Made by a program: the position numbers and the translations under genes. A stretch of DNA of 63,738 bases, filler included, from Collodictyon triciliatum (Eukaryota), in the NCBI GenBank assembly GCA_043381765.1. It is 4 parts of 4 records of this genome, joined end to end, with 100 filler letters (N's around TTAATTAATTAA, not from the genome) between each part and the next. Parts side by side here need not be neighbours in the genome. Positions count along the whole stretch, not along the records: positions 19,782 to 39,450 come from JBHJMP010001283.1; 3 more parts are not named here. The stretch is one strand, 5' to 3'. The notes beneath the pieces are model-generated. The model saw only the letters and a program-made list of their open reading frames with translations, ran no database searches and was not told the DNA's origin. Positions 19,682 to 59,501 of the stretch are shown here, one piece after another; position 1 is the stretch's first letter, and every line of letters starts with the position of its first letter.

Positions 19682-19781
19682 NNNNNNNNNNNNNNNNNNN
19701 NNNNNNNNNNNNNNNNNNNNNNNNNTTAATTAATTAANNNNNNNNNNNNNNNNNNNNNNNNNNNNNNNNNNNNNNNNNNNN
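19682..19781. other. Artificial contig-joining spacer (N44-TTAATTAATTAA-N44)
   Basis: Six-frame stop linker inside Ns; identical at all three gaps. Confidence 0.95.
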
Positions 19782-19856
<75 letters not shown>

Positions 19857-19945
19857 AACCAAAAACCAACCAAAAACCAACCAAAAAAAAAACTAAAAAA
19901 ACCGATTGCGTAAAGGCTACGATGCATTCTTATATTTTGTTGAAC

Positions 19946-21466
19946 CTTATTATCTGACAAATCCAAGATACTGATATGCTCCATTAGTAGCAGGCATTGA
20001 GGAATACGCGATAGCTACAAAATCATGTCTGTCATCAGCGGCAAAATTTTAAATCATAATTCTTATGTGGTTGAGGAGAGAAAGATATATGCATCAACCT
20101 GGTTTTTCCTTAGACATATTTTCTCCAGGTTTCTCAAAATTGCGAAGGAATCCGGTAGGGATGAAATCTTAAATGGGTGATATTTGAGAATAGGGTATTG
20201 TTCAATCCATCGTGTGTTATTTTCTCGTCTGTATTGTTATAGAATAAATGCAAGCAAATCCTCTCTTCCAAAATGAGATTTATGAGAATCTACCTGATTG
20301 GAGGAGAGGTCGATAGAGTCCAACTGCTGCCAAAAGCTAATCTGGTTGGAAATATCCACTAAACCGTGGTTGTGATAGATTCGAGAATATAGTTGCAGAG
20401 AGTGAATACTATCATAGTTGTGAGTTTCAGGGCCCCAACAAGGCAACGTGGAAATCCCTGTATGTGCTCTTTCAACACAATAATCTCCCGTCGAGGAAAA
20501 TGTCAAATACTTCAACTTCGTCAGGTGAGATATGGCTTCTGGAAGAACTTCAATCTAAAAAAACGAAAAGAAAGAAATAGAAAGCGATCTTTTGTCAGAG
20601 TTTTGATGCCTAATTCAGATGAAAATCAGAAAAAGAATGACAGGGGTCAGTCCACCTGCTTCAATAAATGATAGGATGGTTGGTTGCTTTCTGAGATGGA
20701 GTCAGCAGACCTGATTCCCCTCGATGGATAATAACTCGACGTCGACAAGACTTGATAGTTCATTTGGGAGCTGCGATATTTTATTATTTCCCAAAAGCAG
20801 AGCACGAACACCCGTCAGAATCGAAGCCCATGTCGGCAGTGATGTGACTCTGTTGTTATAGAGATATGGAAAAGCCAGTTTGGTTAAAGAGCTGATTCCA
20901 TCCGGTATGCTGTCCAAAAAGTTGTCGTGGATGGTCATTTGTTTTAGATCAGTAAGAACCGATATTTCGTCTGGTATTGAGGTTAGTTTATTGAAGCTGA
21001 GGAACAGTTCGTTCAGATTTGCCAGACGTGATATTCCTGGAGGGACGGATGAGAGTTTATTGTCATTGAGATGCAGTCGGTGCAGGCTGGTCAAGTTTGA
21101 TATCTCATCGACCAGGACACTGATTTTGTTCTTTCCAAGAGCCATGTGTTTCAGCATGGAGAGCAACGATATTTCATTTGGAAGCACAGAAAGCTGGTTT
21201 TGTCTCAAGTCGAGATAGCTAAGGTGAACCAGGAGAGATATCCACGGCTCCAAAGAGGTTATTTCATTGTCGTTCAGAAGCAGCTCTCTCACGCGCGTCA
21301 CAAGCGAAAGGCCGGGCGGCAGACTCGCTATTTGCCGGAAGTCCAAACGCAGTTGTGTGCAGGCTGGAAAAGGGCTTCCCCTTGGCCTGGCGTCCGGCTT
21401 CAACTCTGCCAGACGCATAAGGTTGTCCCGGGCATTTTCCGCGCCAGTTGATTGTGTGTTTCCCAT
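19946..21466 (-). CDS. N-myristoylated leucine-rich repeat protein (SHOC2/ROCO-type LRRs); 3' end probably lost in the gap
   Basis: MGNTQS fits MGxxxS. About 9 LRRs of the LxxLxLxxNxLxxLPxxI type in exon 1, then exons IEVLPEAISHLTKLKYL..., ISSLPDSFAILRNLEKICLRKNQ and LSRIPQCLLLMEHISILDLSDNK with GT-AG boundaries. Confidence 0.85.
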
Positions 21467-21631
21467 GGCCCTGTACGCCTTTTTTTCTTTTTTCTTTATA
21501 AAAAAAATATATTGGTTCGGTGGAGTCCAAAAGTCGGTGGATATGTGGAGAGCAGACGACCGAAAAGATTCTGCGGCAGGGTAGAACCGGTTTGTGGCAC
21601 AACGCGGTCATCAAAGCAGGCCCAAACACCA

Positions 21632-22110
21632 AGAAAAAGAAAAGATGAAAAGATGAAAAGAAGAAATGGAAGAAAAGATGAAAAGATGAAAAGATGAAAA
21701 GATGAAAAGAAGAAAAAGAAGAAAAAGAAGAAAAAGAAGAAAAAGAAGAAAAAGAAGAAAAAGAAGAAAAAGAAGAAAAAGAAGAAAAAGAAGAAAAAGA
21801 AGAAAAGGAAGAAAAGAATAAAAAAAGAAAAGAGAAGAAAAGAGAAGAAAAGAGAAGAAAAGAGAAGAAAAGAGAAGAAAAGAAAAGAAAAGAAAAGAAA
21901 AGAGAAGAAAAGAGAAGAAAAGAAAAGAAAAGAGATGAAAAAAGAAGAAAAGAGAAGACAGGGAAGAAAAAAGAAAATCAAGAAAAAGAGAAGAAAAGAG
22001 ATGAAAAAAGAAGAAAAGAAAAGAAAAGAGATGAAAAAAGAAGAAGAGAGAAGACAGGGAAGAAAAATAATATCAAGAAAATGAAGAAAAGAAGAAAAGA
22101 ATAGAAAATG
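21632..22110. repeat. Purine-rich (GA/AAG) low-complexity tract between divergent genes
   Basis: (GAAAAAGAA)n and (GAGAAGAAAA)n arrays. Confidence 0.9.
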
Positions 22111-22583
22111 AGTGAAAACGGGTTATCGGACGCACCCAAGATATTTAAGTACTCATCTTAAACCCTATATTACCGACTCTGTTCCATAACCTTCTTTCAC
22201 CGAACAACCTACGCTTCTTTTTGTGGATTTGTTGTGCGGGAATCTGTCCAGTCCCACAGAGAAGGGAGTCTTCGAGTCATCCGAGTTCCCACCATTCCTA
22301 TTTGATTTGTGTCAAAAATAAATCAAAATAAAAAAATAAGTCAAAAATAATCAAAAAAATAAACAAAAAACAAAAAACAAAATACAACAGAAGAGTAAGA
22401 GGCGATGGAGAACACAAACCAACAGAGATCAAACCGCCGCACAAGACTGCAGGGCAAAACAAACAGCAAGCAACTCCCTTTATTCCCTCCCCGTCGCATT
22501 TCCGCCACTGCTCGCGCTTCGTTCGCCTGGGATTCGCTGCGCAAAGTGCGGTACTAAGTGGTGTGACTTTTGTGCTACCAGAG

Positions 22584-25500
22584 ATGGATTTGGAGCCTCT
22601 CTTTTTCCGGCTGCACGAAAGGCTTCTGGGAAGTTACTCGAAGGCCCTTTCAAGCCGCACCCGAAGGCTCGTCGAATATGTAACGCTTGGCTTGGCGCTC
22701 GGGATGTTGTCGGTTCTAGTTCTCTTGCACACCCGCTTTGTTGCAGACGTAAGTTTTCTTTCTTTCGTTGTTCTCGTTTCTTTATTCTTTTTCTTTTTCT
22801 TTTTTTCATTTTTTCATTTTTTCATTTTTTCATTTTTCATTTTTTTCATTTTTTTCATTTTTTTCATTTTTTCATTTTTTCATTTTTTCATTTCTTCATT
22901 TTTCATGGTTTAGTTTTTCATTTATGATATTGACAACTGTGTAGTTCGTTTCAGTCATGTATAATTATTTGTAAATGAGGAAGTCTGGCTGTACAAAGCT
23001 ATTCTCTGAGCGTGATCTGAGTAGTTCAGACATATATCACATTCAGGTTTGCTGAAACAATCATTCACTTGTATGTCCCTATTTATTTTTTTTTGTTCGG
23101 TATTGCTTTATTATATGCATTTTTGCTTATCTGTTTTTGTATTGTATCCACACAAAATATTTACTTTGTCGATAAAAGGATATCTGAATTGTAATTCTTC
23201 TGCAGATCGAACGGTCATGGTCGGGACTTGGAGACCAATTATTAAAAGAAACCGCACTTGCAGATCATAAAACACACGTATCGCTCAAGGATTCTTGCCC
23301 TGATTGCCCTCACGAGGATTCGGAGCATGTAGGTGTCAAGTAGATTACCTGAAGGCTTTACATCATGATTTATCACTATCATCATCGCTCTTCACAGCTA
23401 TGTGTCCATCAAAACAGACTTCTTTTATTTAATCAAGAGCTCATCTTCTTATCTGCAGATGACTCTTTCCTGCATCGAGATGCTTTCTAAATCAGCCATA
23501 CATATGCATATGTCTTCATTAGGATGAACTCATTGGCGGAAATAAACGTCCCAACAAAGACATGGGCATTAACCGCAGCGCTGAATCTGCATATCACAGC
23601 GGAAACAGTGGGTCTTTAGACGTTGAAAGGATTATATTTGTGCTGACTTTTTCCTTCATCTAATCCTGTGTCGCGAACCCGAGGCGTGTATTTCGTGGAT
23701 TTCATTCCTAGTAAAAAAAAAATGGAAGAAAACCCGCTCAACATATTTCCTTTCTGCAGCGTTTTCTGAGTCTTTTCCAAGTTCTGTATACATCTATTCA
23801 AAAGAAAGGGGACTTTTGGAACTCCCGAGTCACATCCGTGCAAAGTACGGCATCAAATCAGCCGAACTGTCGCTTGGTTCGCGTGATGAGTGTCTCGGAA
23901 ACCCGTATGTGCTCTTACACACGCAACATAGAGAAATATGATTCCTTTTCGCCCTTTTGTCTTTGAGGATTCTCATTTTACAGATAGCATATATATATAT
24001 TAAAGCATGCCCCTCTCAATTTATAAAAATCCTTCCCTATTTATACGACAACGTTTCATGAATTCCAAGTTCAGCTTTTCCCCTTGCTCCTTAAATGCAA
24101 GCGCTTCGAATATGCGCAATACCAAATCCATCTCATGCACTTTTGGTGAATATTGATGGAATCTCTTGTAGGTTTTTGCAGAGTGTCGTTGAGAATTTTG
24201 TAGGATATGGTATGCTTCATGTCACCTTATTTCAACAGAGCAATTTTATAGATTTTTTTTCATCCAATTTTTGACCACTCCTTTTCTGAGAAGATACTAT
24301 CGTGCTCAATGCGCTTGTGCAACACACGAACGGTGTTGGCTATGTGCTGAGTGTGCAAACATCCGAGTATTCTGACCTTTATCAAGCAACATCAACCTAT
24401 CGCCCGCAAAGCTCTGGTGGTAAGGACACTGTGCAGAATCATACAATCTGCTTGCATTAAGAAAGATAAAAGCATGTGAAATGAAACATAATGAGAATAC
24501 ATGGAAAATTCATTACCCAAGCGCCGTATTGCTAATATTATCCCTTTTTTTTTTTCAAAAAAATTCCTAATTGTCTTTACAAATCCAAGAATATCATATT
24601 TACCCCCTCTTTTTTTTAAATTACATTTAAACGATATGTTCTAGCCTTCATGGTACAGAAAATCGGTATTCTTGTCACATCCTTGTTTCTGTTCTTCACA
24701 GCATCAACTTTGGTGGCGTTGTGCCTTCGTGAGACCCAGTTTCGCGTCTTTCAATTCACATGTATGTTGTGATGAGATACACAAAGTCTTATAGTATCCA
24801 TATTTCACCTTTCAAGAGGCGCGATATCTTCAATTTTTCCCCCATATTATCCAGCTATTCTAATGCGAAGCTCTTTCGTATAATGCCAGTTCAACTTCAG
24901 TATTTTACGCGGCATCGACTTCCATGCGGTAGATTGATTATGTCACACATCATCAAATCCTTGGTTTTTGTCTTGGTGAGCAGCTAGCGATAAAAAAAAT
25001 CTACACATTTATTTATCCATTTATTTTATTCGTTTTCTGCTCTGGTTGATTATCAGGGTATATGCTCTGCAGCACAACTCAATGCTGCCATGGTTTTATG
25101 TCGAAATAATCCTATATGTGCCTCACTGTACTTTAACTTTGCATTTCAGCCTTGATGTCGCCTCAACTTTCTTTTTCTCATCCTCTGCAGGTGCTCATCG
25201 GTATACTATTCTTTTTTGCTGAGTTTCTTGAAAACCAGGGACTTGCATTCTTGCTTCTGACAGACTGCTGGGTCTGTGAGCTGTTTGCAATCATAAGGTA
25301 GCTTTTTTTTTCCTTTCTCTTTCCCAATCCTCATAACGATGAATGACCAGAAAGTGCTCACCATCGTCGTTTCTTCCTTTTTCCTTCCCAGTGTGCGGAG
25401 CGAGGCATCGGTGCGATTTTTCCCGCGGTTCTTTTTCCTGTACTTTATGCTTTTCCACATTTACTACTTCTCATTCCCATTCGGATTCACATATCTGGCC

Positions 25501-25779
25501 TTCTTTACCATGACGATGTTTGTGCAGCACTTGATTCTTTACTTTGTCAACTGCCACGAAATCCCGTCCTTGCAATCGCGTTCGGTCACGGAACACAACC
25601 CACGCTTTCCGTTCCACCTTCCACACGGCACAAACTCTGTCGATGAGCACACCAGTCGAATCGCCCAACTCGCCATCATGCCAAACCCGCAACACAACCT
25701 CGCGGCAGCGGCTTCAACAGAGGCACCGCACAGCTTTCACGCAAATGCACTGCGTCCGGTTTTTGCTGGCGGCTCCTGA
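22584..25779 (+). CDS. TMEM259: Membralin (TMEM259-like ER membrane protein), multi-exon
   Basis: LFFRLHERLLGSYSKALSSRTRRLVEYVTL...LH; YSKERGLLELPSHIR; GYDTIVLNAL; LFLFFTASTLVALCLRETQFRVFQFT; IGILFFFAEF; SVRFFPRFFFLYFMLFHIYYFSFPFGF...HEIP. These are characteristic membralin blocks. Confidence 0.9.
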
Positions 25780-26286
25780 TGGCATTATATTCCCTGGTCT
25801 TTCTGTGTTTTTATGATTGGGCTTTGTTGGCTTTTTTTTTTTCTTGTTTGCATTCGCTGCTCACAAAGAGAAGGCATCAAAGAAACATATCGCACAATCC
25901 AAAACATCCTCTACAACCTTCAGCTGTTTCCTTGATTCACACAAGATTGTACCCAACTCCATATCCATCCGCTTTCAATTTCTAAGACATCACTAAAGTA
26001 TCAGACTATCCATTTCTTTAAAAATAATAAATAAATAAATAAATAAAAAAACGGAATAATTGGAGGTCAAAACCAAATCCTTACACAGTAGAGATAAGGT
26101 ATGACGAATTCCTTTTCTCTCCAATTATTTCGGCATCACAGCGATTGGGCGAGGATATTTGTTTATTCTTTGTGATGGAAATAAGAACAGAGCGGACCGA
26201 TGAATCAAGGCAACTCATTTTTTTTTCTTCCTTTTTGTTTAGCGTTCAGCTGCTGCTTTCTTTTCTTCTCAAGCCTCTTCTTTTCC

Positions 26287-26779
26287 TCATGGCGAGCTCA
26301 CGGTGTTTGCGTCTTTGCTTCCCTTTTTGAAAGCGGCGACGGGCGAACCGGTCTGTGTGAACCCGAGAGTCATGTCTGGGTTTGGTCTGCGGTTGTTGTA
26401 TCGAACCCTGTGTTGGTGTGGATGTGATTAGAGCCGGAAACCATTCGCAACCGATAGATATGTGACTTTGTCGTATTGTTGTTTTTTCTTCCTGTCTTTG
26501 CTTACTCTGTCAAAAAGTGGATAGGAACGCGGCTTCCCGTCAGCTTTTCACGGACTTCGCAAAATAGCGTGATGAATTCAGAGAGCTTCTCCTATGATAT
26601 TTTATTTATAAAAAAAATATATTCCATAGCGATTTTTATGCGAAACCGCCCAACCTGAAGGGTTTCAACCAAAAAGAAAAGAAAATAAAATAAAATAGAA
26701 AAAAGAAAAAAAGAAAAGAAAAAAGAAAAAAAGAAAAGAAAAAATGAGAAAAAAAGAAAAGAAAAAATGAGAAAAAAAG

Positions 26780-26810
<31 letters not shown>

Positions 26811-29800
26811 GAACAAAAAGAAAAAATGAGAAAAAAAGAAAGAATATGCTTGTGGAAAACTGTCACAGACTTCAGACTCGGGGGCGCCAGCCACATCAAA
26901 CTCAATCAGCAGGTCGCGCATGGGTGGCTGGAAGTGAAGCACAAGGAAGCGATCTTTGTATGGGCTCATGCTAGAATATATACAGCATCGTCACCGATTT
27001 CAGCTTGTAAAATAAGCAGTTAAATGGGTGAGGTGTCAGACGTTCTATAGCAATCAAAACCTGAAGGACATAATGGCAGCAATTGGATACGGGTCTTTCT
27101 TGTGCTTGTACGTTTTTTGGTTCAACTGAGAAAGGGAATGAGTGAATTTCAGTGCTATGCGCAGGAATGACTGATTAAAAAAAAATCGAAAAGAAAAGAA
27201 AAGAAAAGAAAACTAGGGAAAAAAAGGGGAAAAAAAGGGGAAAAAAGGGAAAAAAAGGGAAAAAAAAGGGAAAAAAAAGGGAAAAAAAAGGGAAAAAAAA
27301 CGAAAAAAAGGAAAAAAGAATCTTTTGAGATGTATCCTCACCAGATAAAGACGCATGTTGGTGAGAAGGATAGAGCGAGGGTCGAGTGAGGAAGACGAAC
27401 TGTATTTATTCAAGTTGCAAGAGAAAAGAACGTCGGTATCGCCTGCAAAGTAAACGCAAGGAGTGATGAATAAGACGAAAGAGGTAAAATAACAAATGCT
27501 GGGATGTGTTAATCAAGTCCAATATTTTGAGGTACTCATAGTATATTATTGGTTGATATCGAGCTATTCTTTTCGTCTTACCAGTTGGCTTAATCTTTTC
27601 GACGAATGAATCAAAGACGTCCTTGTGAGGGTTTGATGGGAGCGACAAATAATTACCTTGAAAACCTCGTGACACCCTATGTATTACAAAAAAAAACAAA
27701 ACAAAACAAAACAAAACAGCAATTTACTTGTTGGCGTACTAATACATATTTGCTTGCTTTTTCCAGCAATAATCCGAACAAAATGCAGTCAACCGCTAAC
27801 ATGTGTTTCGGTATCTTTTTTTTAAAAAAAAAGATCAATTAAAAGATGGTCATTACATCCAAAACTTTTTTCCTTTGAATAAATCCATCGTCATGACTTT
27901 TCGTCTCATAAACACTCTGTTCTCTGGTGTCAGTCCGTTTACCATCCGACGAACCTGAGTGGCAAAAGGAATGACTTTGGTTATAAGACGACTACTGTCT
28001 GAACTAAGAGAGGCAAATCAATTTAAGGATTTATATGTTCCCACCCAATATTTGATATAGATTTTCTTGCACAATGCATTTGCATGTGAGAATGAAGGCA
28101 AAAATTTGGGCCACGAGAAGTTCTTTCCGTAGTAATTTGAAAGGCTGAGGCTTTGTGCATACGCTGCTTTCAATTGGAGAACATACCGACGATTCTGATA
28201 GATGGTGGATGAGGATCTGCATTCTCAGCAAAGATATCAAAACATAGTGGATTTTACAGATATCGGTGGCATAATATATATACACACTCGCGCAAGACGG
28301 TAGAATGATTGGATCTGCTTGATTTTTCGGTATATGCGGAGGAATTTTCTTCGGGCCTAGAAATGATGGAACAATGGTCATGCTTTGAAGATATTTTAGA
28401 CATATTATATGAACATAAATGCAAATTACAATCCATCCACGGATGATTTTCTGAATAGGGACAGCTGCTTTGTTGCGCCTTGTGCGGATGCGCCTCTTTT
28501 AAATAATTTTTAATTTATTGAATATGACTACACTTTTTTCACATAAAAAATTACACTCTCGAGGCTTCTGTCCCTTTTCAGGGGGAAACAAACAAACAAA
28601 CAAACAAACAAACAAACAAACAAACAAACAAAACAAAACAAACAAAACAAAACAAAACAAAACAAAACAAAACAAAACAAAACAAAACAAAACAAAACAA
28701 AACAAAACAAAACAAAACAAAACAAAACAAAACAAACAAAACAAACAAACGAACAACAAAAATTTGATCAGTATAAAGATAGGTATATAAAAGGAGTACG
28801 ATAATCCGACGCATGACTCGCTGGATTCGGACTGCAGCACGCATTTTGATAAAGCTTTTGATGGCCTACAGAGTTAAGCCAGATTGCACGAATTATATTA
28901 GCTTGAAAAAAAAAAGCGTTATAAATTCTTGAAAAGGGCTTATTTGGCCTTATCATTTCAAAATAAAGTAAATTAAATAAAGCAGTGAATAATACAAGTC
29001 TTCTGCGCGCATATTTTTGGATAACGACGGCAGCGAGACTGTTCTTTTTCCATCGACGAGCCTAAAATGTTTATTCATGATTGCGCTATCCATCAGCAGA
29101 GTTCGGCTCCTTACAACAGTCTAAAATTCAAGATTTCTCTTTTGTTTATGGTTCTGTCAGAAATAAAAAAATTACTTTGAGTCCACGATAGTACTTTTGG
29201 AAGACGACAACAGCCTTAATTATTTTCCATGCTTTTCGAGCCTACCATAATGTATTACAGTTACTGATGTATATTTGCGTTTTTTTTTTAAAAAAAAAAA
29301 GGGAAAAAAAAGGGGAAAAAAGCGAAAAAAGGGGAAAAAAAGGGAAAAAAAGGGGAAAAAAGGGGAAAAAAGGGGAAAAAGGGGGAAAAAAGGGGGAAAG
29401 GGGGAAAGGGGGAAAGGGGGAAAAGGGAAAAAGGAAAAAGTGGCATACATTCAACTCAAAACGGAAACAACAGATGAAATATTATCATGTCACAAAAATT
29501 ACAAACCAGGCGGCCTTTGTAGTGTTTCTGAATCATGATACTCGCAATAGTTCTCTTCTTCCAGACGCGGGCCTATGGCCAGGTAATAAAGAGAGAGGAA
29601 TAAGCAAAGGAGCAACGAACATGTGGAACGGAGAGCGCTTTAGTTACCATCCACCCTCGAACAATCCTTTGAACTAAAATAGCAGCGCGCAGCCTTTTAT
29701 AAGCTTGGCGAGCCTGTTTTAAATTTATTTATTGATATATGTACTTATGGCTAGGTAAATGCAAACAAACAAACAAACAAACAAACAAACAAACAAACAA

Positions 29801-32800
29801 ACAAACAAACAAACAAACAAACAAACAAACAAACAAATAAATAAATAAATAAACAAATAAATAAATAAATAAACAAACAAATATGAATGTATCAATAATT
29901 CATGGAATGTATGAAACTTCTGTCTTGCTTTCAAGAGGGACTTCTATTTCTGTCTTCGCATGTTTTAAAATAGAACAGAGCCAAAGAGTGATAGCAAATG
30001 AGAATAAGGTTGGATACCCGCCATCCACGAGTATATTTTTGAATCACAATTGCAGCAAGAAGTCTCCTGTAGGCCTTGCGGGCCTGAGTTGAAGTAGTTG
30101 AGCTTCATAATCAAGGGACGCCACTTTATGGGAACGATTCAACAAAATGTGGAATCATACCTTCCAACCGCGATAATGGGCAAGTATGACTCTGGTTGCG
30201 CTCAATTTCTCATACCAAACCCGAGCCTATATGAGGAAAGAAGAAGAAGAAAAAAAGCAAAAGGTTAACATGGCTATTTTCGGCGTTTCTGTCCGATTGG
30301 AAACCACATAAAAAATGAACGATTTTGCTCATCACATACGAGCTCAGACTCAATTACATAATACACCTCATCTTTTATCTTTTTTCAAAACAATCACACA
30401 AGTTGCTCTACTCTCGGATGGAGATACAATTTTTGAAAAAGAAAAAAAGAAAATGGTATGGAACCTTGTATCCTTTCCACCAGCGAGATATGATAATCGG
30501 GACGAACGGGAGCTTTTGCTCGCGAATTTCCTCAAAGAAGAAAAGCTAAATATGAATTGTTGCGTAAATCAACAGTGGGACAAGTGCAGCCAATGCAAAC
30601 AAATTGTAATAGGAGAATAGAGAGAGAGATATTATTTGTAGAAGACGAAGAGTAACCTGCGACGGGTGACGGATAAAAATCTTTGTTTTCCCAAGTCGAT
30701 ATTGATCTTCTTTGGTTTCATGATGATCCAGAATAGCCTTGACAGAGACCTTGAGGTCGGGATTATGTGTGGGCCACGTCTGTGGACAAAGGAATTTGTA
30801 CCTAGAGTGATATCGGGTAAGCCATAATTATTGATCAAAAGAATAAGGCTCTGCGATGCATTGAGTTTCGTGCGTTATGCAATGAATAAGAGAGCTCATG
30901 AGGCATTCTACCTTTGAATAAACCGTTGAAAAGTTTGACGATTGGCAAAGCCCGCCCGACGAACACGGATATTCTCAAGAAGACTATTTTGATTGAGCAC
31001 GATTAATATTGCATTTATGCTCAACTGGGTTTTATAATGATAGGGTCAGTGAGATTCCTCTAATGGACTGAATGGAGACCCGAGATATCGGACTTGATGG
31101 ACAACGAGGGGTTCCTCAAATAAATTGGGGGCTTTTATGCCGTTTGGTTTGATGCATCGGATGTAGTGAGGTTGGCAAGACTTGAGCGTCGATATTAAAT
31201 CATTCACAGCAGTCTTTCATGAGAAAATTTACACAAAAATTAGGACAATATGTGTTCTGCATGACAGCAAAGTTTTTTTTAACGCGTGTGCTACGGGCAT
31301 GATTTGTAGATATTAATAAATTTCCGAAACACTGACTTTAAATTGCGCACTGAGAGTTATCGGTCGCTTCCTTTCATCCAGCTCGATGACGGGAAAAGTG
31401 TCTGTCACCACAGAAAGCTGACTTGTGGTCATCGCTTTCTTGATATCGTAAAATAGTGTGTCTTTGTTCTGTCGATAATAACAACCAGATTAAAATCGCA
31501 GCAGGAAGAATGCGTCAAGAATTGAGAAGAAAGTATGATAAGGATATCGTGTTATTATAATTTTTTTTTGTACCTTCTCCAAAAATCCATCGATACAATA
31601 CATCACCTGGAAGAAAAAGGGATTTGGAATTGTCGTTATGAATTTAAAAAAAAAGAAAGAAAGAGAGGTGTAACTTTTTCAACCTATAATTGTACTATAG
31701 ACTTAAATATCCAAATTTACATCGCCTGCATAGTGCTTCAGCCTAAAGTTGTTCAAGCCGAGGGATTTTTCCTTTTTGGTAGGGAAACTCTCAAAGTGAG
31801 GGTGCTTGGTGAAAATTCTGGAATAAACAGAGGAAGTACGAAAAAAATTATTAGATAGCTTCGTTAATTTGCCAGCACATTGAAAGTGGTAAGGAGAGAA
31901 ACACACAGAAAATCATGCAATCATAAAAAAAAAAAAAAAGTGAGGGAGAGAAACAGACATAACGGATTACGTATTTAAGCGCGTTAGAAAAGTTGAATCG
32001 GTCGCATCGGTGAGGGTGCAAACATCATCCAAACAGGCCAGAATTCCTTGCTTTTTCTGTAAAAATTAAAAAAAAAAAGGGGTCAGATGCACTTTATTCC
32101 GCCAAAATAAAACATATGGATGGTTTTTTTTTGTGGGATTACGTTTTCGATGAGATCCACGATAACCTACAAGAATGAACGCAGATGTTTCAATGGAAAG
32201 TAGTGTAAATACCATATGCTCAAACCGAAAGGGCAATAAAAACAGTACGGCAAGAATCATAGTGTTTTGCAAGATGAAATAAAAAAAAGGATTCAAGGTG
32301 GGGAAAGCTCACTTGGTTATTGAAATAGTCGATGGACTCCCATTCGATTCCTTCACGTGCGTACTCTTCCTGCTCCGCCTTCAAGGTCAAGTCAATAAAG
32401 AGCTGCTGCAAACTCTCGTTGCAATAATTGATACTGTGTATTGATATTTTCATAAGAGTTGAAACAGGAGTGTCAAGTACGAGGAAAATAGTAACAATCA
32501 TGTTGACGACAGGAGAAACGATGTATGTATTCTTGTGTGGCAAATATATACCAAAATTGTTCAAGGCTGTTTTCCTACAAAATGTAAATGATGTTACAAG
32601 AAAAATTACATGTGAAAATTACGGTATGATTTCTTAAATAAATAGGAATCACTCAAAAAATACCTCGAATACTTCAAAGCCGTAGATGTCAAGAATACCG
32701 ATCCTGAGAGTATCTGGGTTTCCATACGAGATGCGGGTGTTAATCCTCTCAACAATCCATGTAAACAGGCGGGAATAGAGCGCCTTCGCAAGGGCATCAC

Positions 32801-35704
32801 GGGCGAAGTAGCACTAGCAACAATGGTATTGTTTTAGAATTCATGTCAGTTTCATTGCGAGGTTGCAAGGCTACTGCCTGATACGGAAAAAAAAAGAGAG
32901 AGAGAATAGAAAAGAATAGAAAAGAAAAACAACAAACAAAAAAGGAAAGGAGAAAGAGAGAGAATGACGACAAAGTATTTTTTCTTTTTACCATGGAAAG
33001 TTCGAGCGGACTTGAAATGCGCATAACACTCTCGCCAACTTTGGGTGCAAAGCTTCTCGTTGTCAAAGCAGTGTTCAACTCTTCCACCGTAATTTTTAGC
33101 AAGTTTGCAACGTATTCTGGGGCTAAAAGAAAAAAGAAAAAGAAAAAGAAAAAGAAAAAGAAAAAGAAAAAGAAAAAGAAAAAGAAAAAAGAAAAAAAAG
33201 AAAAAGAAAAAGAAAAAAGAAAAAAGAAAAAAGAAAAAAAGAAAAAAAAAGTCATTTATGAGCCTAATCCACAATCACTCAAAAGTTTTAACAGGGACTG
33301 AGTACTTTCTCCAAATAGAGCGATTTCAACACTTACTAGCCGCACTTTCGAACGCAGCGAGGTTTTGGCCTCCCATTTTTGTCTGGCTTTCCACAAAATC
33401 GATGTTACCAAGGTGAAGAACGGCCGCCAGAATGCGAAACATTTGTTGTTGAACATCGGCAGTGATTCCAAGAGTCTCCAACGCACTCTGTTTTAGATGC
33501 GGACATGATTTGAGTTGTCTGTATTTATAAATGGGACATATAACCGAGAACTTAAGCATATGATAGAGATGAGTCAACCAGTTTGTATTTACACTTTGAA
33601 CTGAATCGGATTTTTGCATAATTTTTTGTTAAAAATAAAGTGGAATAGGACAATACGAAATGTTAAAAGGAGATGTATTATCGTGGTTCGGCTATATGGA
33701 AGCATTTTATGTGCACATCACTTACTTTAACTCTGTCAAAATCTACAGCGTCGTCAACGCCTTCAATGGAGTCGCAGTCGCTCGATTTCAAATACTTGAA
33801 GTTGCTGGTGTCGCGAGATAGATGGAGCGAAGCTAATCGAGCATCAGGTCATCAGAATAAAATAAAAAAACTGGGAGAGAAAAAAAAGAGTATGTAGATG
33901 TTTGTAAATTAGTGAATGAGTTACAATATATGATAAAAACACATGTGAATCATTACAAAGTTCGGATTCGGTCGCTCCTTTGATAAGTTGGTAGAAAATA
34001 TGGAAAGAACGCTCTCCTTTGGCTCTTTTCACCACACGGGACTACAAATTCAACAAATCAGAAGTGCCATAAAAAAATCCAACTTCGTCACAGATGTTAC
34101 AAAAGTAAAAAAAAAAAGTGTAAAAAGTTTTAAAAAAAAATCTGTAAGATAAAAACGTAAATAAACAATCATTAGTATGAAAATTAAAATTCTGCAGGAC
34201 ACCTTCTCCAGAAGATCTGAGAGTTTATTAAGAAAAATATATCAAAATCGATTGAAATAACTCATAAAACAATCAAGTGTTTTGATGCAAAGCTAATGTT
34301 GCGTTATTTGCGGATACAGTTTGTGATTTTTCCTCCCACAGGTGCACCAGAGTAATCAAACTGAATCTCCATATATTTTCCAAAGCGAGATGAATTGTCG
34401 TTTCTCAGTGTCTTTGCGTTTCCAAATGCTGTAAATATGATAAATAAATGGAGATGCCTTCTTTCATTATTACTCGAAAGACAGTAAAAGTTACAGTGTG
34501 TAATCAGAGCATTGAGGCAAAATGTCATCACAGAGTGCAAGATTACTTCTGATTACAAATTGAAAGTAACCGATATCATGAAGAGTGGATTTGTTTTTAT
34601 AGAGCAAAGACTTCAAATGGGCAATGGAAAGAAAAAAAGATACATACACTCGAGAATGGGGTTTGAATCAAGCAGCTGGTTTTTCACACGCTCTCCGTCT
34701 GCCCCTGGTGTGTTTTTGCTGACTGCAGCCAAATACTGCATGATTAACTTGGAAGACTCGGTTTTCCCAGCGCCACTTTCGCCACTTTGATTTATATGGT
34801 GTTTTTTTTTTTCGAAATAATAACAAAATTCATCAAGGAAATATATTGATTAGATTCCCAACAAGAAAATAATTCACCCAATATGATTGATCACAAGTAC
34901 TTTTTTTTAAAAAAAAAACATTCACATATACGTTCGCTTAGTAATATCTTTATATATGAAATTGAAGAGAGAAAAAAACTCACGTGATAACGATACACTG
35001 GCTCACATGGGTGTGCATCAGAGCGCGGTATGAATCATCCGCAAGTGCATATCTCAAAAAAAAAAAAGATATATCAACAAAACAGAAAAAAAAATAAAGA
35101 GTTCGAGTGGGTCAAAGTTGTTCAAGTCGCATATGAGTGCGTATGATTTCAAAAGAATCAGTATTCTTGAACAAATTGAACAAGATAGGACATTCGGGTC
35201 ATTACGCAAAGCCGGGCACGAATCAAAGAAACAGCAACAACAAAGGGGTGATAAGTTGGAAAAAGCAAGAAAAGAAAGTCGGGAAAAAATGAAGAAAAAG
35301 AAGATAAGGAGGAAAGAAAAAAACAATATAAACTCACATGTGCGGTGGTACCTCGTAGATATACTTGGACTGGTATTTCTGGATATACTCCTCATCATAA
35401 ATCCCCATCTTCTGGTACGGATTCATAGCAACAAGCACTTCGCCCACATAAGTCTGATCAAATTGCAAACAAAAGTCATTTTATTCTCTGGAACTTTTTG
35501 AATAAAAAAACAAACAAAAAAAACAATAAAAAGTTATGGTCATTTTATAGAATCTCATTATATGTATAGTTTATGAAAGATCGCAAAGTCACAGACGTAT
35601 ATTTCCTTGGCATCGAAGCGGACGCGCAGGTTGTCGACCACTTTGCCTTCCTCCACACTGTCGATCAGAACGAAATCGTGGACGCCGACCGTCTTTCGCT
35701 CCAT
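26287..35704 (-). CDS. MYO1: Class I myosin heavy chain: motor, about 10 IQ motifs and TH1 tail; no SH3 seen
   Basis: [37 protein letters not shown]-loop [73 protein letters not shown] exon array; tail ending [18 protein letters not shown]...NTVSSP-stop. Confidence 0.93.
28586..28750. repeat. (AAAC)n/(AAAAC)n intronic microsatellite
   Basis: Directly visible, in the intron between two IQ exons. Confidence 0.95.
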
Positions 35705-36340
35705 CGCAGACTCTCCGGGAAATCTTCTGGAGGGTTCAAATCGGCTCCTTTTGAGGCAGACACTCAGACACAACCCCCAGGCCGCACCGGAAGCATACGG
35801 ACTCCCAAAAAAAAAAAGAAAAGAAAAGAAAAAAGAAAAGAAAAAAGGAGAAAAAGAAAAAAGGAGAAAAAAGAGAAAAAGAGAAAAAAGAGAAAAAGAG
35901 AAAAAAGAGAAAAAGAGAAAAAAGAGAAAAAGAGAAAAGGTGAAAGGTGTTGCTTCCTTCGCTGGCTTCTGCTGCTTGTCGCATGACTTGTCTTTCTCTT
36001 TCGATTGAGTTTTATATTTGTGTTTCTTTCGGTCTATGTTGATCGGCTTCAACTGACGTTTGAGTCAGAAAATGATACAATGTGGTGTTGTGATTATTGA
36101 TGAAGCAAAAACAAACAAACCAACCAAAAAAAAAGGGAAGGTTTGGATTCGGATTTCATATTATTTCAATGAATTTATATCCAGATATGGATTATTTCCC
36201 TGCATTGTTCGCGCTGACACATTGTATTCATATCCTAATCAGGATGTTTTCGCCGAAGATGAAATACGCATTTGGAGAATTTGTGGTTTGATTTGGTATG
36301 AATGAAGTGATGCAAAAAGATACGGTACATCAGCCATTGC

Positions 36341-39288
36341 TCAGCTTCCGCTTTCGTCGCTGTAAAGGCTCAGCACTTCCTGCAAAAGCGTGTCATCAGA
36401 TGCGGCGCTGTGCTTGGATTCTTTGCGGGCGTGACCATAAGTGATTCCGTCCTTTTTTTTTTTTTTAATGATGGTGATTAATGTTTGGGATGGAAAGAAG
36501 AGTGGACCGTGTGGTCTTCTATGTGATATCTCCGGTTCAAAAAGGAAAGCGAAAGGTTCACGGGGTGCAGAAGAAGACGGCATTTCTTTGATCCAGTTAA
36601 CATGAAAGTTGGTGATGATGAAAAGAGGATTTGATGACTTTGTGAAAAAATAAAAATAAAATAAAAAACACAGAAGAAAAAAGGAGGTGCATAATTGATT
36701 GAAAATTATTACTATTTCTCTGAGCTTCAGCCTTAGAACTTCTGATTCAATCTGCTGAATGCTCCCGGCCGCTTTTATGGCAGCATATATGTCTGGATGA
36801 TGGTCGAGACTTGATGCAAAAGGAATCGTTATTTTAGTATTCATAATTGTAAATATTAGATGAATTTCGGATGCTGAAGTGAGAAAAAGACCAATCTTTT
36901 AGGTGGGTGGCTATGGTAAATCTTGTGTCCATCTTACATGAAAATGGCTCGTATTTGAAAAAAAATGATTACCCGAAATTTTATATTTTCATAGCCGGAA
37001 ATAATAATAATAAAAACGACATCACTAACCTTTTTCTAAGAATATTTTTTATGTGGTCTCTCTGGTGAACGACTGAGGCCTCATAAGAAGAGGCATATTT
37101 GAGGTATTCTGTCGCAAAAAATTATGTATCAATGTCAAGACAGAAATTGTAATGTTTCCCGTGATTATTTCCCACCAGCAAAAGGAAGAGAAGGAGGAAG
37201 AAAAAGGCCTAACCATCAATAACGCCGTATTTGTCTGATGTTGTTCCAGTAAACAGAAAAGGATTTTCCAATAGTGCCTCTGAGATAAAGAAAGACAGGA
37301 AATAAGGCCTTATCGACATGAATTCCACATAGCTGACGCTATAAAATAAGAAAGAGTCCATGGAAGATGAAAGATAAAGGAATATTGACCAGCAGACATG
37401 ACACCGTCGCATTGGGTATACTGAACGCATGCCGTAATGTCAGCGTATGTTCGTATGTTTCCGTTTGCTTTGACATCAATATATTTGTAAAAAAAAAAAA
37501 AATTCGGTGATTAAGAAAAGGCGCCAATTTTCGTTGGACATAAGAACCAGTATGATTTCTTTCATTTGAAAGACATTCTCTCAAAGTATATTCTAAAATT
37601 GCATGACTCTTATTAAATAATAATTCAAACTTACAAATAACAGGTATCTTGACAGCGTTTCTTTGATGTGTGAAAAGCTAGTTTTAAAAAACCCATCGCT
37701 CGATATAAATCACGCAATTTGATAGAAATAAAATACGAATGAAAAAGGAAGTTTACTTCACAGCTTTGATGGCATCCCAATCTGCGGGCCCAACTCGCTT
37801 TCTGTGCTGGTTCAATCGAGTCCTTCCGTGAACAGCAATCAGCTGGAAGATTTTATGATCATTATTCTCGCAATCAAGTATTTTAACGGGCTTGGATTTC
37901 AAAAGGGCAGTTGAAATAACATTCATAAAGTCACCAACAATAATGATAATTCGATAAAAAAAAAAATAAAAAATCTAAAATCCTTAAAAATGACCTACAT
38001 TACAGCCGGAGTCTTCAAGCATCTTGGCAAATTGAACTGTTTCCTTTAACATTCAAAAGATAAAGCAAAACAGAAAAGGAGAGCTAGATAAGTTTTGAAG
38101 TTGAATCGTAATTTTTCAGCGGATGGTAAACAATAACCAAGATTTTCTGATTAATGGCAAGAAATGATGGGCCGGATATAAAAAAAAACTACCGATGTTG
38201 TTGACAAAAGTCTGATTTTGCAAAAAACAGGTATTCTCAAATTTGAGGACAAAGTTGTGACTAAAGGTGATGCGGTCAATGTTGCTGCGTTCATGAGTAT
38301 ATAAAGTGTAGATGTGGACACCCTTTCGGAAGTAAAAAAATAAAAAGGAAGTTGCATTCTATCAAATAATCGTAATTAGGATACTTGGAAAGGGGAGAAA
38401 CACATACCTACCGATCGCACCAAATTCCAGTGGGCTTTATCCAGCAAGTACGACCCGTACAGGTTTTCTTTGGCGTGTTTCAATGGACATCCCAGGTTGA
38501 TATCGATCGCATCGCATTTCGATTCCAAAAGGCGGGCTGCTTCCAACATGACGTCTGGATTATGGCCGCTGATCTGTGGTGGTTATAATTCATCACACGA
38601 TATTGATTAAATTCAGCGGCCTATGAAGAAAGTTCAAGATAGCTCCATCGCCATCATATGAGCTATAATCGGACATAGTTTTATCTAAATATCTCTTGAT
38701 GAAATGTTTTTCATTATCATTAAAGGATGTATCAATTTTCTGTGTAATCTCCCGTGATTATTTTACTGCATGAAAATATGCCTGTGCAACTAAAGGTCTA
38801 TCAGCTTCGCAGGTGCTGAACTCTGTTTGACGGTAGTCAAGGTCCGACACAAACCGGTCGCTGCATCATGTTTCGATGTTTTGGATACCACAGAATAACG
38901 TGAGGGGAAAAGAGAGAAAGAAAAAACAGGGAGGAAGAGGGTAGAGAGAGACAAGAAAGAGAGCTTGATGGGAAAACCTGAGAAGCATCGGTGTATAGCA
39001 AATGAGATTGGGTGTGCGACTGCGACAAAACATGCGGAAAGCCAATTCTGACTGGTCGATCTGTAAGTATAAATGATTTATCATAAACCAGTATTGAATG
39101 GAGTTAAAGAATGATTTCGTTTTTTTGGAGTTTTCGAGGGTTTGTGTTTTCTCATTGTGTAATATCGCCCAGCGATGCACACTTACCATCGGGGCCATTA
39201 CGTACGGGCACCTCTTCAACAGCGCTCGTGCATCTTCGGTCTTGGCTGCCGTCTTTGCCTCCGTCGTCGGGTGAAATCGTGCACTCAT
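36341..39288 (-). CDS. DUS1: tRNA-dihydrouridine synthase (DUS1-like), multi-exon
   Basis: YVMAPM|IDQSELAFRMFCR; YTPM; DRPLVAQ; DAIDINLGCP; PVFCKIR; LIAVHGRTR; GPADWDAIKAVK; ANGNIRTYADITACVQYTQCDGVMSA|EALLENPFLF. Confidence 0.9.
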
Positions 39289-39450
39289 GACTCCTCTTGA
39301 TCTTGCTTTATGTGTGGTACACTCGACTTTGAATATATAAGGTTTAATCGGTTTTTTTTGTTTTTTGTTTTTTGTTTTTTGTTTTTTGTTTTTTGTTTTT
39401 TGTTTTTTGTTTTTTGTTTTTTGTTTTTTGTTTTTTGTTTTTTGTTTTTT

Positions 39451-39550
39451 NNNNNNNNNNNNNNNNNNNNNNNNNNNNNNNNNNNNNNNNNNNNTTAATT
39501 AATTAANNNNNNNNNNNNNNNNNNNNNNNNNNNNNNNNNNNNNNNNNNNN
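39451..39550. other. Artificial contig-joining spacer
   Basis: N44-TTAATTAATTAA-N44. Confidence 0.95.
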
Positions 39551-57226: not shown

Positions 57227-57326
57227 NNNNNNNNNNNNNNNNNNNNNNNNNNNNNNNNNNNNNNNNNNNNTTAATTAATTAANNNNNNNNNNNNNNNNNN
57301 NNNNNNNNNNNNNNNNNNNNNNNNNN
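57227..57326. other. Artificial contig-joining spacer
   Basis: N44-TTAATTAATTAA-N44. Confidence 0.95.
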
Positions 57327-59501
57327 GTCGATCCTTTTTTTTGAGCGGATGTCATGGAATATTGGGTTGTAATGGTATATGACAAAGTGTTTCCGCGTGT
57401 CGACAAAAGGCGGGGTATTTTTGGGGGGTTCGCGAGTCGGGTGGAACCGGATGTGGGAGGTGGATGTGAACAAGAGGCCGTCGACGTAAGGAGACTGCAT
57501 GACAGGACGAACGGAGTGGAAAAGAGAGTCTGCCGTGTCCATGTCGTCGGTTGTTACGGTCTTTTGGAACTTTAAGCACTTTGAGATCATGAGGGGGTTG
57601 TAGCCGGCGTCTACTTTGGCAGTGAATTTTGTGATGTCTGACTTTCGAAAGAAAGAGCACGGGGCCATTTCGCGGCGCGGGATGGAGAGGATTGGGGGCC
57701 TTGTGTAAGGGGATTTTGGGGTTGCGAGTGACGGGTCCATGAAGTGGCGGACGGACTCGTAGGGCCCGTACGGGACGATGAACTCGAGCGGGGAGAGGAA
57801 GCTGAGCCACTGTGTGCGAGGGCCGAAGCGCGCGGTGCAATCGCTGAAAGCGGTTGCCTCGGCATCCTTTGAGGCGGGCCATGGCATGCGGATGACGAGG
57901 AAAGGGTATGCCCTGTTGAGCTTCTCGAGGAACTTTGACCAGCGTGCGTGGAACTGGCGGTCGCTCTCCTCGGCAGCCTTTGATTTCTGGCCGGAGCGAG
58001 AGAGGTAGTCGGGGTCCTGGGTGACGTCCGGGATGTAGAGGATGAACCTGCGGAAGCCCATCATGTTGTGGTACTCGATCCACTCGACAAGGATGTTTTT
58101 GTGGAGCGGGTAGACGACGGTGCAGGCGGTGAGGAACGTGTACGTGAGGCGCACCTCGGGCGTGTCGTAGAGGCCGATGCGGGCGTCCAGCCAGGCGGAG
58201 CGCACTTTGTGCCCGAAGGTCACGCGCATGCGGCCGAGATGGGAGACCTCCCTGCTGCCGTCATCATCGCTGCCGCCGCCGCCGCTGCTGCCGTCTGCTG
58301 CGTGTGCGGACAGGCGATGCACCGTGTAGTTCGGGACGATGCGCTTGCTGCGCAGGTCGGCCTGCTCGGTGCTTGTGCGGATCCACTCCTGGACCAGCGT
58401 GCGGGGCGCGGGGCAGCGCACAAAGGTGGCGTCCCAGGCGTGCGCGGCAGACGTCTGGATCGGGGGCGGCGGGCGGCCGGGCGGCTGGTACTCGCAGCGG
58501 ACGGCGGCGGAGGGGAAGTAGGAGCGGACGGGCGCGTCCTCGTACGGCGGGGCCGTGCCGCTGAACGCCTGCGCGCCCACCACCTGCAGCCCGGGCTGCT
58601 GCCCGTTGACGTAGACCAGCGACGCCAGCCGCCCGTCGCTCGCCCCGCCCGCGTACCGGAACTCGCCCCACACGAAGCGCCCTCTGCGCACGCGCAGCAC
58701 ACGCACCCGGTGCCTGCTCCACGCGCCGAAGCGGCCCCGGCACACCGGCTGCGCCATGCACTCCACGCGCCCGTCTGCCCGGCACGCGCCGGGGGCAAAG
58801 TGCATGCGCCGATTGGCCCGTCCATCGGCAGCGGCATCGGCAGCGGCATCGGCATCAGCATCGGCATCGGCCGTCATCATCACCACCGACCGGTCGCTCG
58901 TCGGGGCCGTTGGCACAATCTCCAGGCGGTCGCGCCACTCCCACTCGGCCTCCGCCGCCTCGTCAAAGACGCACCACGCCTCCCCGCTGTCGCGCGTGTC
59001 CCGCTCCGCCCCGCCGAAGCTGCCGCCGTCGCACGCAAATCCGTCCGGCATGTCCAGCACGATGCGGATGCGCTTGCCGCACGGCGCCACGGCGTCTCCA
59101 CCTCCACCTCCACCTCCGTCTCCGGCCTTGGTCTTGAGCGGCATGGCTGCGTCCAGGAAGCCGCCCCAGTCCCCGTCGTCCAGCAGCAGCCCCTGCAGCG
59201 CACTCGTGTTGTGCCGCGCCGCGTACATCGCCGCGTCCAGCGCCAGCCGCTCCCCCAGCGCCGCCCGTTGTGCCCGCTGCCGCTCCCTCAGCGCCTCAGT
59301 CGTGCGCCGCGCCTCCTCCAGCGGCCCCAGGAACGCCTCGTTCACCGCCCACAGCAAGGCATTCGCAAGCACAAGCGCCACAAACGCAATCTGCGCGCTG
59401 CGCTGTGTGGTGCAGTGGCCGCTGCTGTGGCTGTGGCTGTGGCTGTGGTTCGCTGTGGCTGTGCTGCTTTTGCTCTCGGCGTTAACCCACCGTGTGCTCA
59501 T
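57327..59501 (-). CDS. Type II membrane protein with C-terminal glycosyltransferase family 92 (DUF23)-like domain; intronless, 3' end in the gap
   Basis: Over 720 codons open. N-terminal TM IAFVALVLANALLWAV, coiled stem, then FLTACTVV...ILVEWIEYHNMMGFRRFILY...AFSDCTARFGPRTQWLSFLSPLEFIVP...IYHY, following the GT92 motif order. Confidence 0.72.

Follow-up and report, generated by a model that had tools for sequence, protein, structure and literature searches.

The closest described counterparts of the gene presented here are myosins with long necks. Necks of one to six IQ motifs are described in the passages of PMC6981383 that deal with this part of the molecule, including Myo1b isoforms with 4, 5 and 6 IQs that are produced by splicing. 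The relevant section of PMC9311500 gives the six IQs of Myo1b as the maximum for class I, and the corresponding part of PMC2119751 reports that splicing in the light-chain-binding domain sets the IQ number of Myo1b (rat myr 1a/b/c). For the ancestral myosin I, a paneukaryotic reconstruction arrived at 0-2 IQ repeats (excerpt of PMC3942036). In other protist myosins, 17 IQ motifs are found in the class-XXXI proteins of oomycetes and at least nine in an orphan myosin of Galdieria (passages of PMC2375034 on these proteins). The gene described here belongs to Collodictyon triciliatum (assembly GCA_043381765.1) and encodes a class-I myosin whose neck consists of ten IQ-like units, each on its own short exon. 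It is located on the minus strand of a stretch of 63,738 nucleotides (nt), referred to in its entirety as the window, within the part derived from JBHJMP010001283.1 (positions 19,782 to 39,450). The units are named in transcription order as IQ1, on an 81-nt exon, and u1 to u9.

The vertebrate Myo1b, whose neck is the longest described for the class in the literature consulted, is similar in being a class-I myosin with IQs followed by a TH1 tail and in having IQ units whose omission would preserve the frame. It differs in the number of IQs (4-6 vs 10), in the period of the neck (29 vs 22 residues) and in its motor, which falls into another clade in a quick tree. Moreover, alternative splicing is demonstrated for Myo1b but not for the Collodictyon gene. 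The class-XXXI and Galdieria myosins likewise have very long IQ necks and are found in protists; unlike the protein described here, they belong to other classes and have tails with ankyrin/PH and AAA/DnaJ domains and no TH1.

To establish the class of the gene, its motor exon 32649..32813 was used as a query against protein sequences, resulting in 1011 proteins at E <= 0.001 among 1054 candidates; PF00063 is present in every listed match. The best match is a transcript-derived protein of Diphylleia rotans with 925 amino acids (aa) and 82% identity that contains Myosin_head, IQ and TH1 (TRINITY_DN572_c0_g1_i3, P0001; EukProt EP00002). Its cluster mate i4 (P0121) is full-length with 1154 aa, and its Pfam matches are Myosin_head (PF00063, E 8.4e-259, residues 8-677), TH1 (PF06017, E 3.5e-28, residues 965-1145) and IQ (37.1 bits vs a cut-off of 20.3). 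The gene model was obtained by homology-guided spliced alignment to P0121, which gave 38 exons; u5 was left out of this alignment because the guide has one unit fewer, and it was added from RNA evidence. The complete coding region (35704..26287, minus strand) comprises 39 exons with a coding sequence of 3537 nt and 1179 aa, has no internal stops and ends with a TGA at 26289..26287. Identity to P0121 is 849/1154 (73.6%), and exons 1-21 align with its motor from end to end. The TH1 tail is encoded by exons 33-39 (26290..27954, minus strand), as defined by tblastn and the spliced alignment to P0121, and starts at residue 984 of the spliced protein according to our own TH1 profile, the Pfam run having been made on the ortholog. 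An N-terminal extension or SH3-like domain is absent: the model starts with MERKTVGV... at 35704, as the ortholog does, and the motor begins seven residues further on. Judged from its sequence, the encoded protein belongs to the class-I myosins, combining a motor, a neck of ten IQ-like units and a TH1 tail and lacking an N-terminal extension, and the myosin-I identity proposed in the initial annotation is borne out by motor, tail and N-terminus. Besides Diphylleia, an exhaustive search of representative sequences found no relative closer than 47% identity. Four micro-exons of the motor (34203-34216, 32552-32574, 32143-32166 and 31574-31606, minus strand; 14, 23, 24 and 33 nt) derive from the model alone; they are needed by the spliced alignment to restore conserved motor motifs such as NYLLEKSRV and NSLEQFCINYCNE.

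The neck is encoded by a regular array of exons on the minus strand. Re-extraction of the nine exons in 30226..28288 gave eight of exactly 66 nt and one of 69 nt, each with AG before and GT after it and all open in frame; the peptides of 22 or 23 aa agree with those originally written for them. The array is preceded by exon 21, the last motor (converter) exon (30657..30801), and by exon 22 (30545..30465), an 81-nt exon with phase 0 on both sides that encodes the end of the motor helix and the first, degenerate IQ. The 66-nt exons are u1 (30161..30226), in which IL replaces IQ; u2 (30018..30083), u3 (29648..29713), u4 (29507..29572) and u5 (29176..29241), all with a strict IQ; u6 (28996..29061) and u7 (28800..28865), in which RR replaces RG; and u8 (28430..28495), again with a strict IQ. 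The last unit, u9 (28288..28356), is a degenerate IQ (IQSFYRLAR). Its length of 69 nt, as first annotated, is corroborated by the ortholog transcript, which reads in frame into NRRYV..., and by RNA that joins 28288 to 28194. A variant of 71 nt with a split codon was rejected, as phase 0 agrees with the ortholog and also with the joint 28288|28194 in RNA. Downstream follows exon 32 (28045..28194, 150 nt, phase 0/0), which encodes the post-IQ segment before TH1 (NRRYV...YGKNFSWP...KYW).

The introns between the nine array exons measure 77, 304, 75, 265, 114, 130, 304 and 73 nt. All ten array introns are in phase 0, compared to 14 among the remaining 28 introns, and all array exons are symmetric (phase 0/0; 81, 8 x 66 and 69 nt), so that skipping would keep the frame. 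Exons are short throughout the gene (14-151 nt). The long array introns are rich in microsatellites, which Tandem Repeats Finder located at 28586-28761, 29295-29434 and 29762-29881; on the plus strand these are (AAACA)n with ~38 copies, (AAAAAAGGGG)n with ~11 copies and (CAAA)n with 30 copies.

Splicing of the array was followed in RNA. Five RNA runs were listed, each containing 5-8% of the sampled words, and four of them (X1-X4) were aligned as assembled contigs. Spliced contigs with 0 mismatches to the window come from X1 (study P1) and from X3 and X4 (study P3). They confirm six of the ten array introns (junctions IQ1-u1, u5-u6, u6-u7, u7-u8, u8-u9 and u9-exon 32) and two flanking introns, with boundaries exactly as predicted (30546-30656, 30227-30464, 29062-29175, 28866-28995, 28496-28799, 28357-28429, 28195-28287 and 27955-28044). 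At the upstream end, X3 record 13 joins exon 21, IQ1 and u1 (joints 30657|30545 and 30464|30225), which places the junction between exons 21 and 22 (intron 30546..30656) in RNA. At the downstream end, X1 record 2 connects exon 32, u9, u8, u7, u6 and u5, covering 29175..29228 of the latter; X4 record 14 joins u8, u7 and u6, X3 record 12 joins exon 32, u9 and u8, and X1 record 1 joins exons 32 and 33. Consequently, u6 is spliced on both sides in X1, with its joint to u7 also seen in X4, u7 on both sides in X1 and X4, u8 in X1, X3 and X4, and u9 on both sides in X1 and X3; the joints of exon 32 are 28194|28288 (X1, X3) and 27954|28045 (X1). The X1 contig ends inside u5 with 22 letters that we take to be the reverse complement of a SMART-type template-switching oligo, which fits X1 as cDNA. 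The rows from X2, pieces of 31 letters in a TTC-rich intron stretch (30233-30264), have 2-3 mismatches and were treated as spurious. The array is thus expressed, and most of its units are spliced in RNA. Isoforms with different IQ numbers were not seen: an exon is skipped in none of the seven listed contig joints, which stem from four runs and cover IQ1-u1 and u5-u9. Short metatranscriptome peptides were also searched for other neck isoforms, with none of 3181 candidates at E <= 0.001, and exact 40-nt probes from u3 and u5 had 0 matches each in metagenome contigs.

The eight 66-nt units, taken together with seven units from Diphylleia, share the consensus AR...KR..AA.VIQK..RGW. with a length of 22 residues. 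An intron interrupts each IQxxxRGxxxR core between residues 9 and 10, leaving the final 'AR' to start the next exon; the closing basic residue is hence the second codon of that exon, and the position of the cut is identical in every IQ core. From this intron position it follows that one exon corresponds to one repeat period and not to one IQ core. The earlier description of each 66-nt exon as an IQ unit therefore holds for the period, while the core itself spans two exons. Over 15 units, the core positions are occupied by I/F/V in 15/15, Q in 13/15, R in 14/15, G in 11/15 and the closing R in 13/15. The relaxed pattern is found in seven of the ten units and the strict pattern IQxxx[RK]Gxxx[RK] in five. 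When the peptides of single exons were compared to the Pfam IQ model (PF00612), five of ten matched, namely u2 (E 0.0025), u3 (E 0.0035), u5 (E 0.0057), u6 (E 0.069) and u8 (E 0.077); exon 22 and u4 are among those without a match on their own. The roughly ten IQ motifs initially annotated are confirmed as ten IQ-like units. Autocorrelation of the neck at period 22 amounts to 1.28, compared to a shuffle maximum of -0.32 +/- 0.09, and the neck is strongly basic (69 K+R vs 1 D+E in the scored stretch of 218 aa). From PIIISRWW to FYRLAR it comprises 211 residues, which as a helix would extend over ~32 nm (0.15 nm per residue). An AlphaFold2 model of the ortholog, based on a 33-row alignment, has a mean predicted local distance difference test (pLDDT) of 81.8, with confident motor and TH1 domains; in the neck, three long helices (695-758, 770-836 and 841-898) are predicted at low confidence.

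The history of the array was examined by a unit-by-unit comparison with the Diphylleia units d1-d8 taken from the P0121 mRNA. One-to-one orthologs were found for seven units (identical residues out of 22): u1-d1 (20), u2-d2 (16), u5-d3 (13), u6-d5 (17), u7-d6 (16), u8-d7 (19) and u9-d8 (14). These pairs sum to 115/154 identical residues (~75%), compared to 73.6% over the whole protein; ortholog-unit identity equals that of the entire protein, and the neck is therefore under comparable constraint. Among the units without such an ortholog, u3 is closest to u2 and d2 (13/22 and 14/22 aa, respectively), and the extra Diphylleia unit d4 is closest to u6/d5. At the nucleotide level, the highest identity between any two units is 41/66 (u3 vs u2). 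A blastn comparison among the ten array introns found no similarity, including the two introns of exactly 304 nt, and Tandem Repeats Finder detected intronic microsatellites only and not the array. Recent duplication was rejected on these two grounds. Decayed IQ exons were not found in the introns, where matches to the pattern outside the exons contain stops or are not IQ-like. Given the seven 1:1 orthologous units, most of the array is, by sequence comparison, older than the split of Collodictyon and Diphylleia, and its middle has since gained or lost units. Tandem exon duplication, as put forward in the initial annotation, is the simplest reading of ten homologous phase-0 introns, but the duplications are ancient and not recent.

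The same architecture occurs in a related protist: P0121 shares the motor, the neck with a period of 22 aa, the post-IQ segment and TH1 (73.6% over 1154 residues), but it has nine IQ-like units instead of ten and is known from mRNA only. A further Diphylleia isoform, i2 (P0169, TRINITY_DN572_c0_g1_i2; 550 aa), has a paralog-like motor end and a neck of four IQs with the same 22-aa design, and its TH1 is identical to that of P0121 from ...QFQGNYL onward. It could represent a chimera of the transcript assembly or a paralog with a short neck; should the isoform be genuine, a starting state of four IQs would be hinted at. A second myosin gene, sought to explain this isoform, was not found in the window.

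To assess how unusual the neck is, the interval between motor end and TH1 start was determined with our own profiles in 310 proteins (309 from similarity searches and the window's own), a set picked by similarity that is not a census; 181 of these have both domains. An earlier survey anchored by BLAST, in which only 60 proteins had both anchors, was replaced by this one. The interval has a median of 107 residues in the 181 myosins-I and amounts to 283 in the window's protein and 261 in Diphylleia. Longer intervals occur in four proteins (P0198, 385; P0168, 354; P0227, 317; P0187, 295), of which P0187 is annotated as 'myosin IB' of Capsaspora owczarzaki (XP_004365949.1). The necks of these proteins are IQ-rich. 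In P0187, P0168, P0227 and P0222 of Chromosphaera perkinsii (interval 247), 22 is the best neck period, compared to 29 in animal Myo1b-like necks, and a 22-residue IQ register may be recurring in protist myosins-I. The proteins of Capsaspora and Chromosphaera resemble that of Collodictyon in having a Pfam head and TH1, in interval length (295 and 247 vs 283) and in this period, but they are placed in a separate starred clade and their periodicity is lower (0.22 and 0.09 vs 1.28); the Capsaspora protein additionally has a long N-terminal part.

The motor phylogeny was reconstructed by a quick LG+G4 search with 43 rows and no outgroup, so that its groupings are provisional. The window's protein and P0121 form a pair (100) within a starred clade of 16 rows (97) that includes protist and unnamed sequences and is provisionally separate from the animal Myo1a/b-like proteins, which form a starred clade of their own; a grouping of the motor with Myo1a/Myo1b was not obtained. 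The similarity of neck and TH1 points in the opposite direction: after Diphylleia, the best matches are animal Myo1a/Myo1b-like proteins. On this tree, at least five changes are needed if 'long' is set to >= 240 residues, and seven at >= 230, which suggests that long necks with a 22-residue period arose or were lost several times in class-I myosins. In the literature search, no paper was found on long class-I necks (by title) or on arrays with one exon per IQ; the myosin passages of PMC3351787 concern a class-II marker. The unusually long lever of the initial annotation thus stands with respect to the one to six IQs of the literature, but not among the surveyed myosins-I, four of 181 being longer, including that of Capsaspora. 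By comparison of sequences, the neck exceeds the class-I lengths described in the literature consulted, yet a few database proteins of other protists match or exceed it.

Taken together, the gene, which comes from a freshwater protist with Diphylleia rotans as its nearest sampled relative, encodes a single-headed class-I myosin with a ten-unit neck that probably originated by ancient tandem duplication of exon and intron, is probably spliced constitutively and would serve as a long light-chain-binding lever or tether. The neck would have grown long ago by repeated tandem duplication of one 66-nt exon together with its intron. Duplication of exon plus intron would place each repeat period on its own phase-0 exon and thereby cut all IQ cores at an identical position. 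Within the available data, splicing of the array exons into one mRNA is constitutive. The extremely basic segment of ~211 residues might then form one long helix, to which up to about ten calmodulin-like light chains could bind at a spacing of 22 residues; a putative lever or tether about 30 nm long would thereby connect the motor on actin to the membrane-bound TH1.

Several observations weigh against this interpretation. The contigs have a low depth (2.6-9.3) and drop rare variants, so minor isoforms may be missed. No contig lies on 29243..30130, which leaves the junctions u1-u2, u2-u3, u3-u4 and u4-u5 without RNA cover, and the inclusion of u2-u4 is based on open frames, canonical sites and intact IQ consensus, with an ortholog for u2 only; u3 and u4 are without a counterpart in the Diphylleia mRNA. 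With regard to light-chain binding, the first unit, u1 and u9 are degenerate and u6 and u7 also miss the strict pattern. None of the ten single-exon peptides reaches the Pfam cut-off of 20.3 bits and five have no match to the IQ model; the scores stay below the cut-off because the intron removes the last two residues of the core. The passages of PMC2375034 on motif detection describe the Pfam and SMART IQ models as too restrictive. In the AlphaFold2 model, the neck has a pLDDT of ~41-65, at which the two helix breaks are not interpretable. Light-chain occupancy, stiffness and mechanical role of the neck are thus putative.

The initial annotation had further proposed a lever tunable by splicing, in which the symmetric 66-nt cassette exons are skipped, giving fewer IQs and an altered lever length and force sensitivity as in Myo1b. 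The exon structure would permit such a lever: every exon of the array is phase 0/0, and seven of them (u1-u6 and u9) begin with 'AR', which means that skipping would restore a complete IQ core. RNA cover is lacking for the stretch that contains u3 and u4, two units that also have no orthologs in the Diphylleia mRNA, and there is a precedent in the 4-, 5- and 6-IQ isoforms of Myo1b (relevant passages of PMC6981383 and PMC2119751). Myo1b-like isoforms of Stylophora with 1140, 1130, 1101 and 1082 aa were also among the matches. Nevertheless, the proposal did not find support. Contigs of X1, X3 and X4 pass through u5-u9 and IQ1-u1 without a skip, and the Diphylleia isoforms i3 and i4, which carry the same neck, are identical in it. 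Weak splice sites in the array were considered as a hint of regulation and rejected, as the sites are no weaker than those of the other 28 introns (donor 5.13 vs 4.67 bits, acceptor 5.77 vs 5.09 bits; Mann-Whitney p 0.52 and 0.28, with an acceptor matrix built partly from the array exons themselves). As exons are short across the whole gene, small symmetric exons, taken alone, are no mark of regulation either. A splice-tunable lever is consequently regarded as unlikely, and there is only a small chance that some of the 66-nt exons, most likely u3 and u4, are skipped under some conditions or in some life stages, which would produce graded levers of 8 to 10 IQs. If true, a unicellular eukaryote would have evolved a splice-tuned, force-sensing myosin-I of its own, independently of vertebrate Myo1b. 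The gap in RNA cover and the lack of 1:1 orthologs could also mean that u3 and/or u4 are decaying or cryptic exons outside the normal mRNA and that the protein has eight or nine units, similar to Diphylleia; u4 alone also lacks a Pfam IQ match. This is considered very unlikely. Both units keep open frames, AG/GT sites and the strict IQ pattern, the splice-site scores of u3 are within the range of the gene, and the acceptor of u4, although among the weakest (0.6 bits), is comparable to that of u8 (0.5 bits), which is spliced in RNA. Furthermore, the introns hold no other IQ remnants that would point to a general decay of exons at the locus.

The array may also act not mainly as a lever stiffened by light chains but as a highly basic helical extension, only partly occupied by light chains, that binds acidic membranes or serves as a flexible tether. 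Its charge (69 K+R vs 1 D+E) and the deviation of half of its ten units from a strict IQ motif are in line with this, as is the spacing of 22 residues, which is tighter than the 23/29 of Myo1b necks (best lag 29). In myosin V, IQ motifs are spaced by 23-25 residues, which was counted in the same direction. However, the residues conserved over 15 units are exactly the IQ core positions, and 22 is also the best lag in four other long-necked myosins-I; such a common period speaks for a binding register that is conserved and not for charge alone. A neck acting primarily as a basic extension is thus considered quite improbable, and the ancient, constitutively spliced light-chain-binding neck remains the preferred reading.

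Elsewhere in the window, an intronless open reading frame of 740 codons (57279-59501, minus strand) is located in a block of 60-77% G+C, compared to 32-46% in the rest of the window. It has a weak Pfam match to Glyco_transf_92 (E 2.9e-06, 27.5 bits), its 3' end enters a run of N, and the gene may be of foreign origin, for instance by horizontal acquisition. Paired N runs (2 x 44 N with 12 bases between) are found at three sites, 19682-19781, 39451-39550 and 57227-57326; such regularity resembles masking or scaffolding more than it does ordinary gaps. An Rfam search of the whole window gave no match.

The array is real, expressed and anciently duplicated, and it extends the known range of class-I necks while views of the myosin mechanism are unchanged. 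With the Collodictyon gene and its Diphylleia ortholog, a deep-branching protist lineage retains a myosin-I with 9-10 IQs. With a single period on each exon, the array cleanly documents neck growth by duplication of exon and intron, and it offers a natural lever-length series in which stroke size and force sensitivity can be related to IQ number in a single-headed motor.

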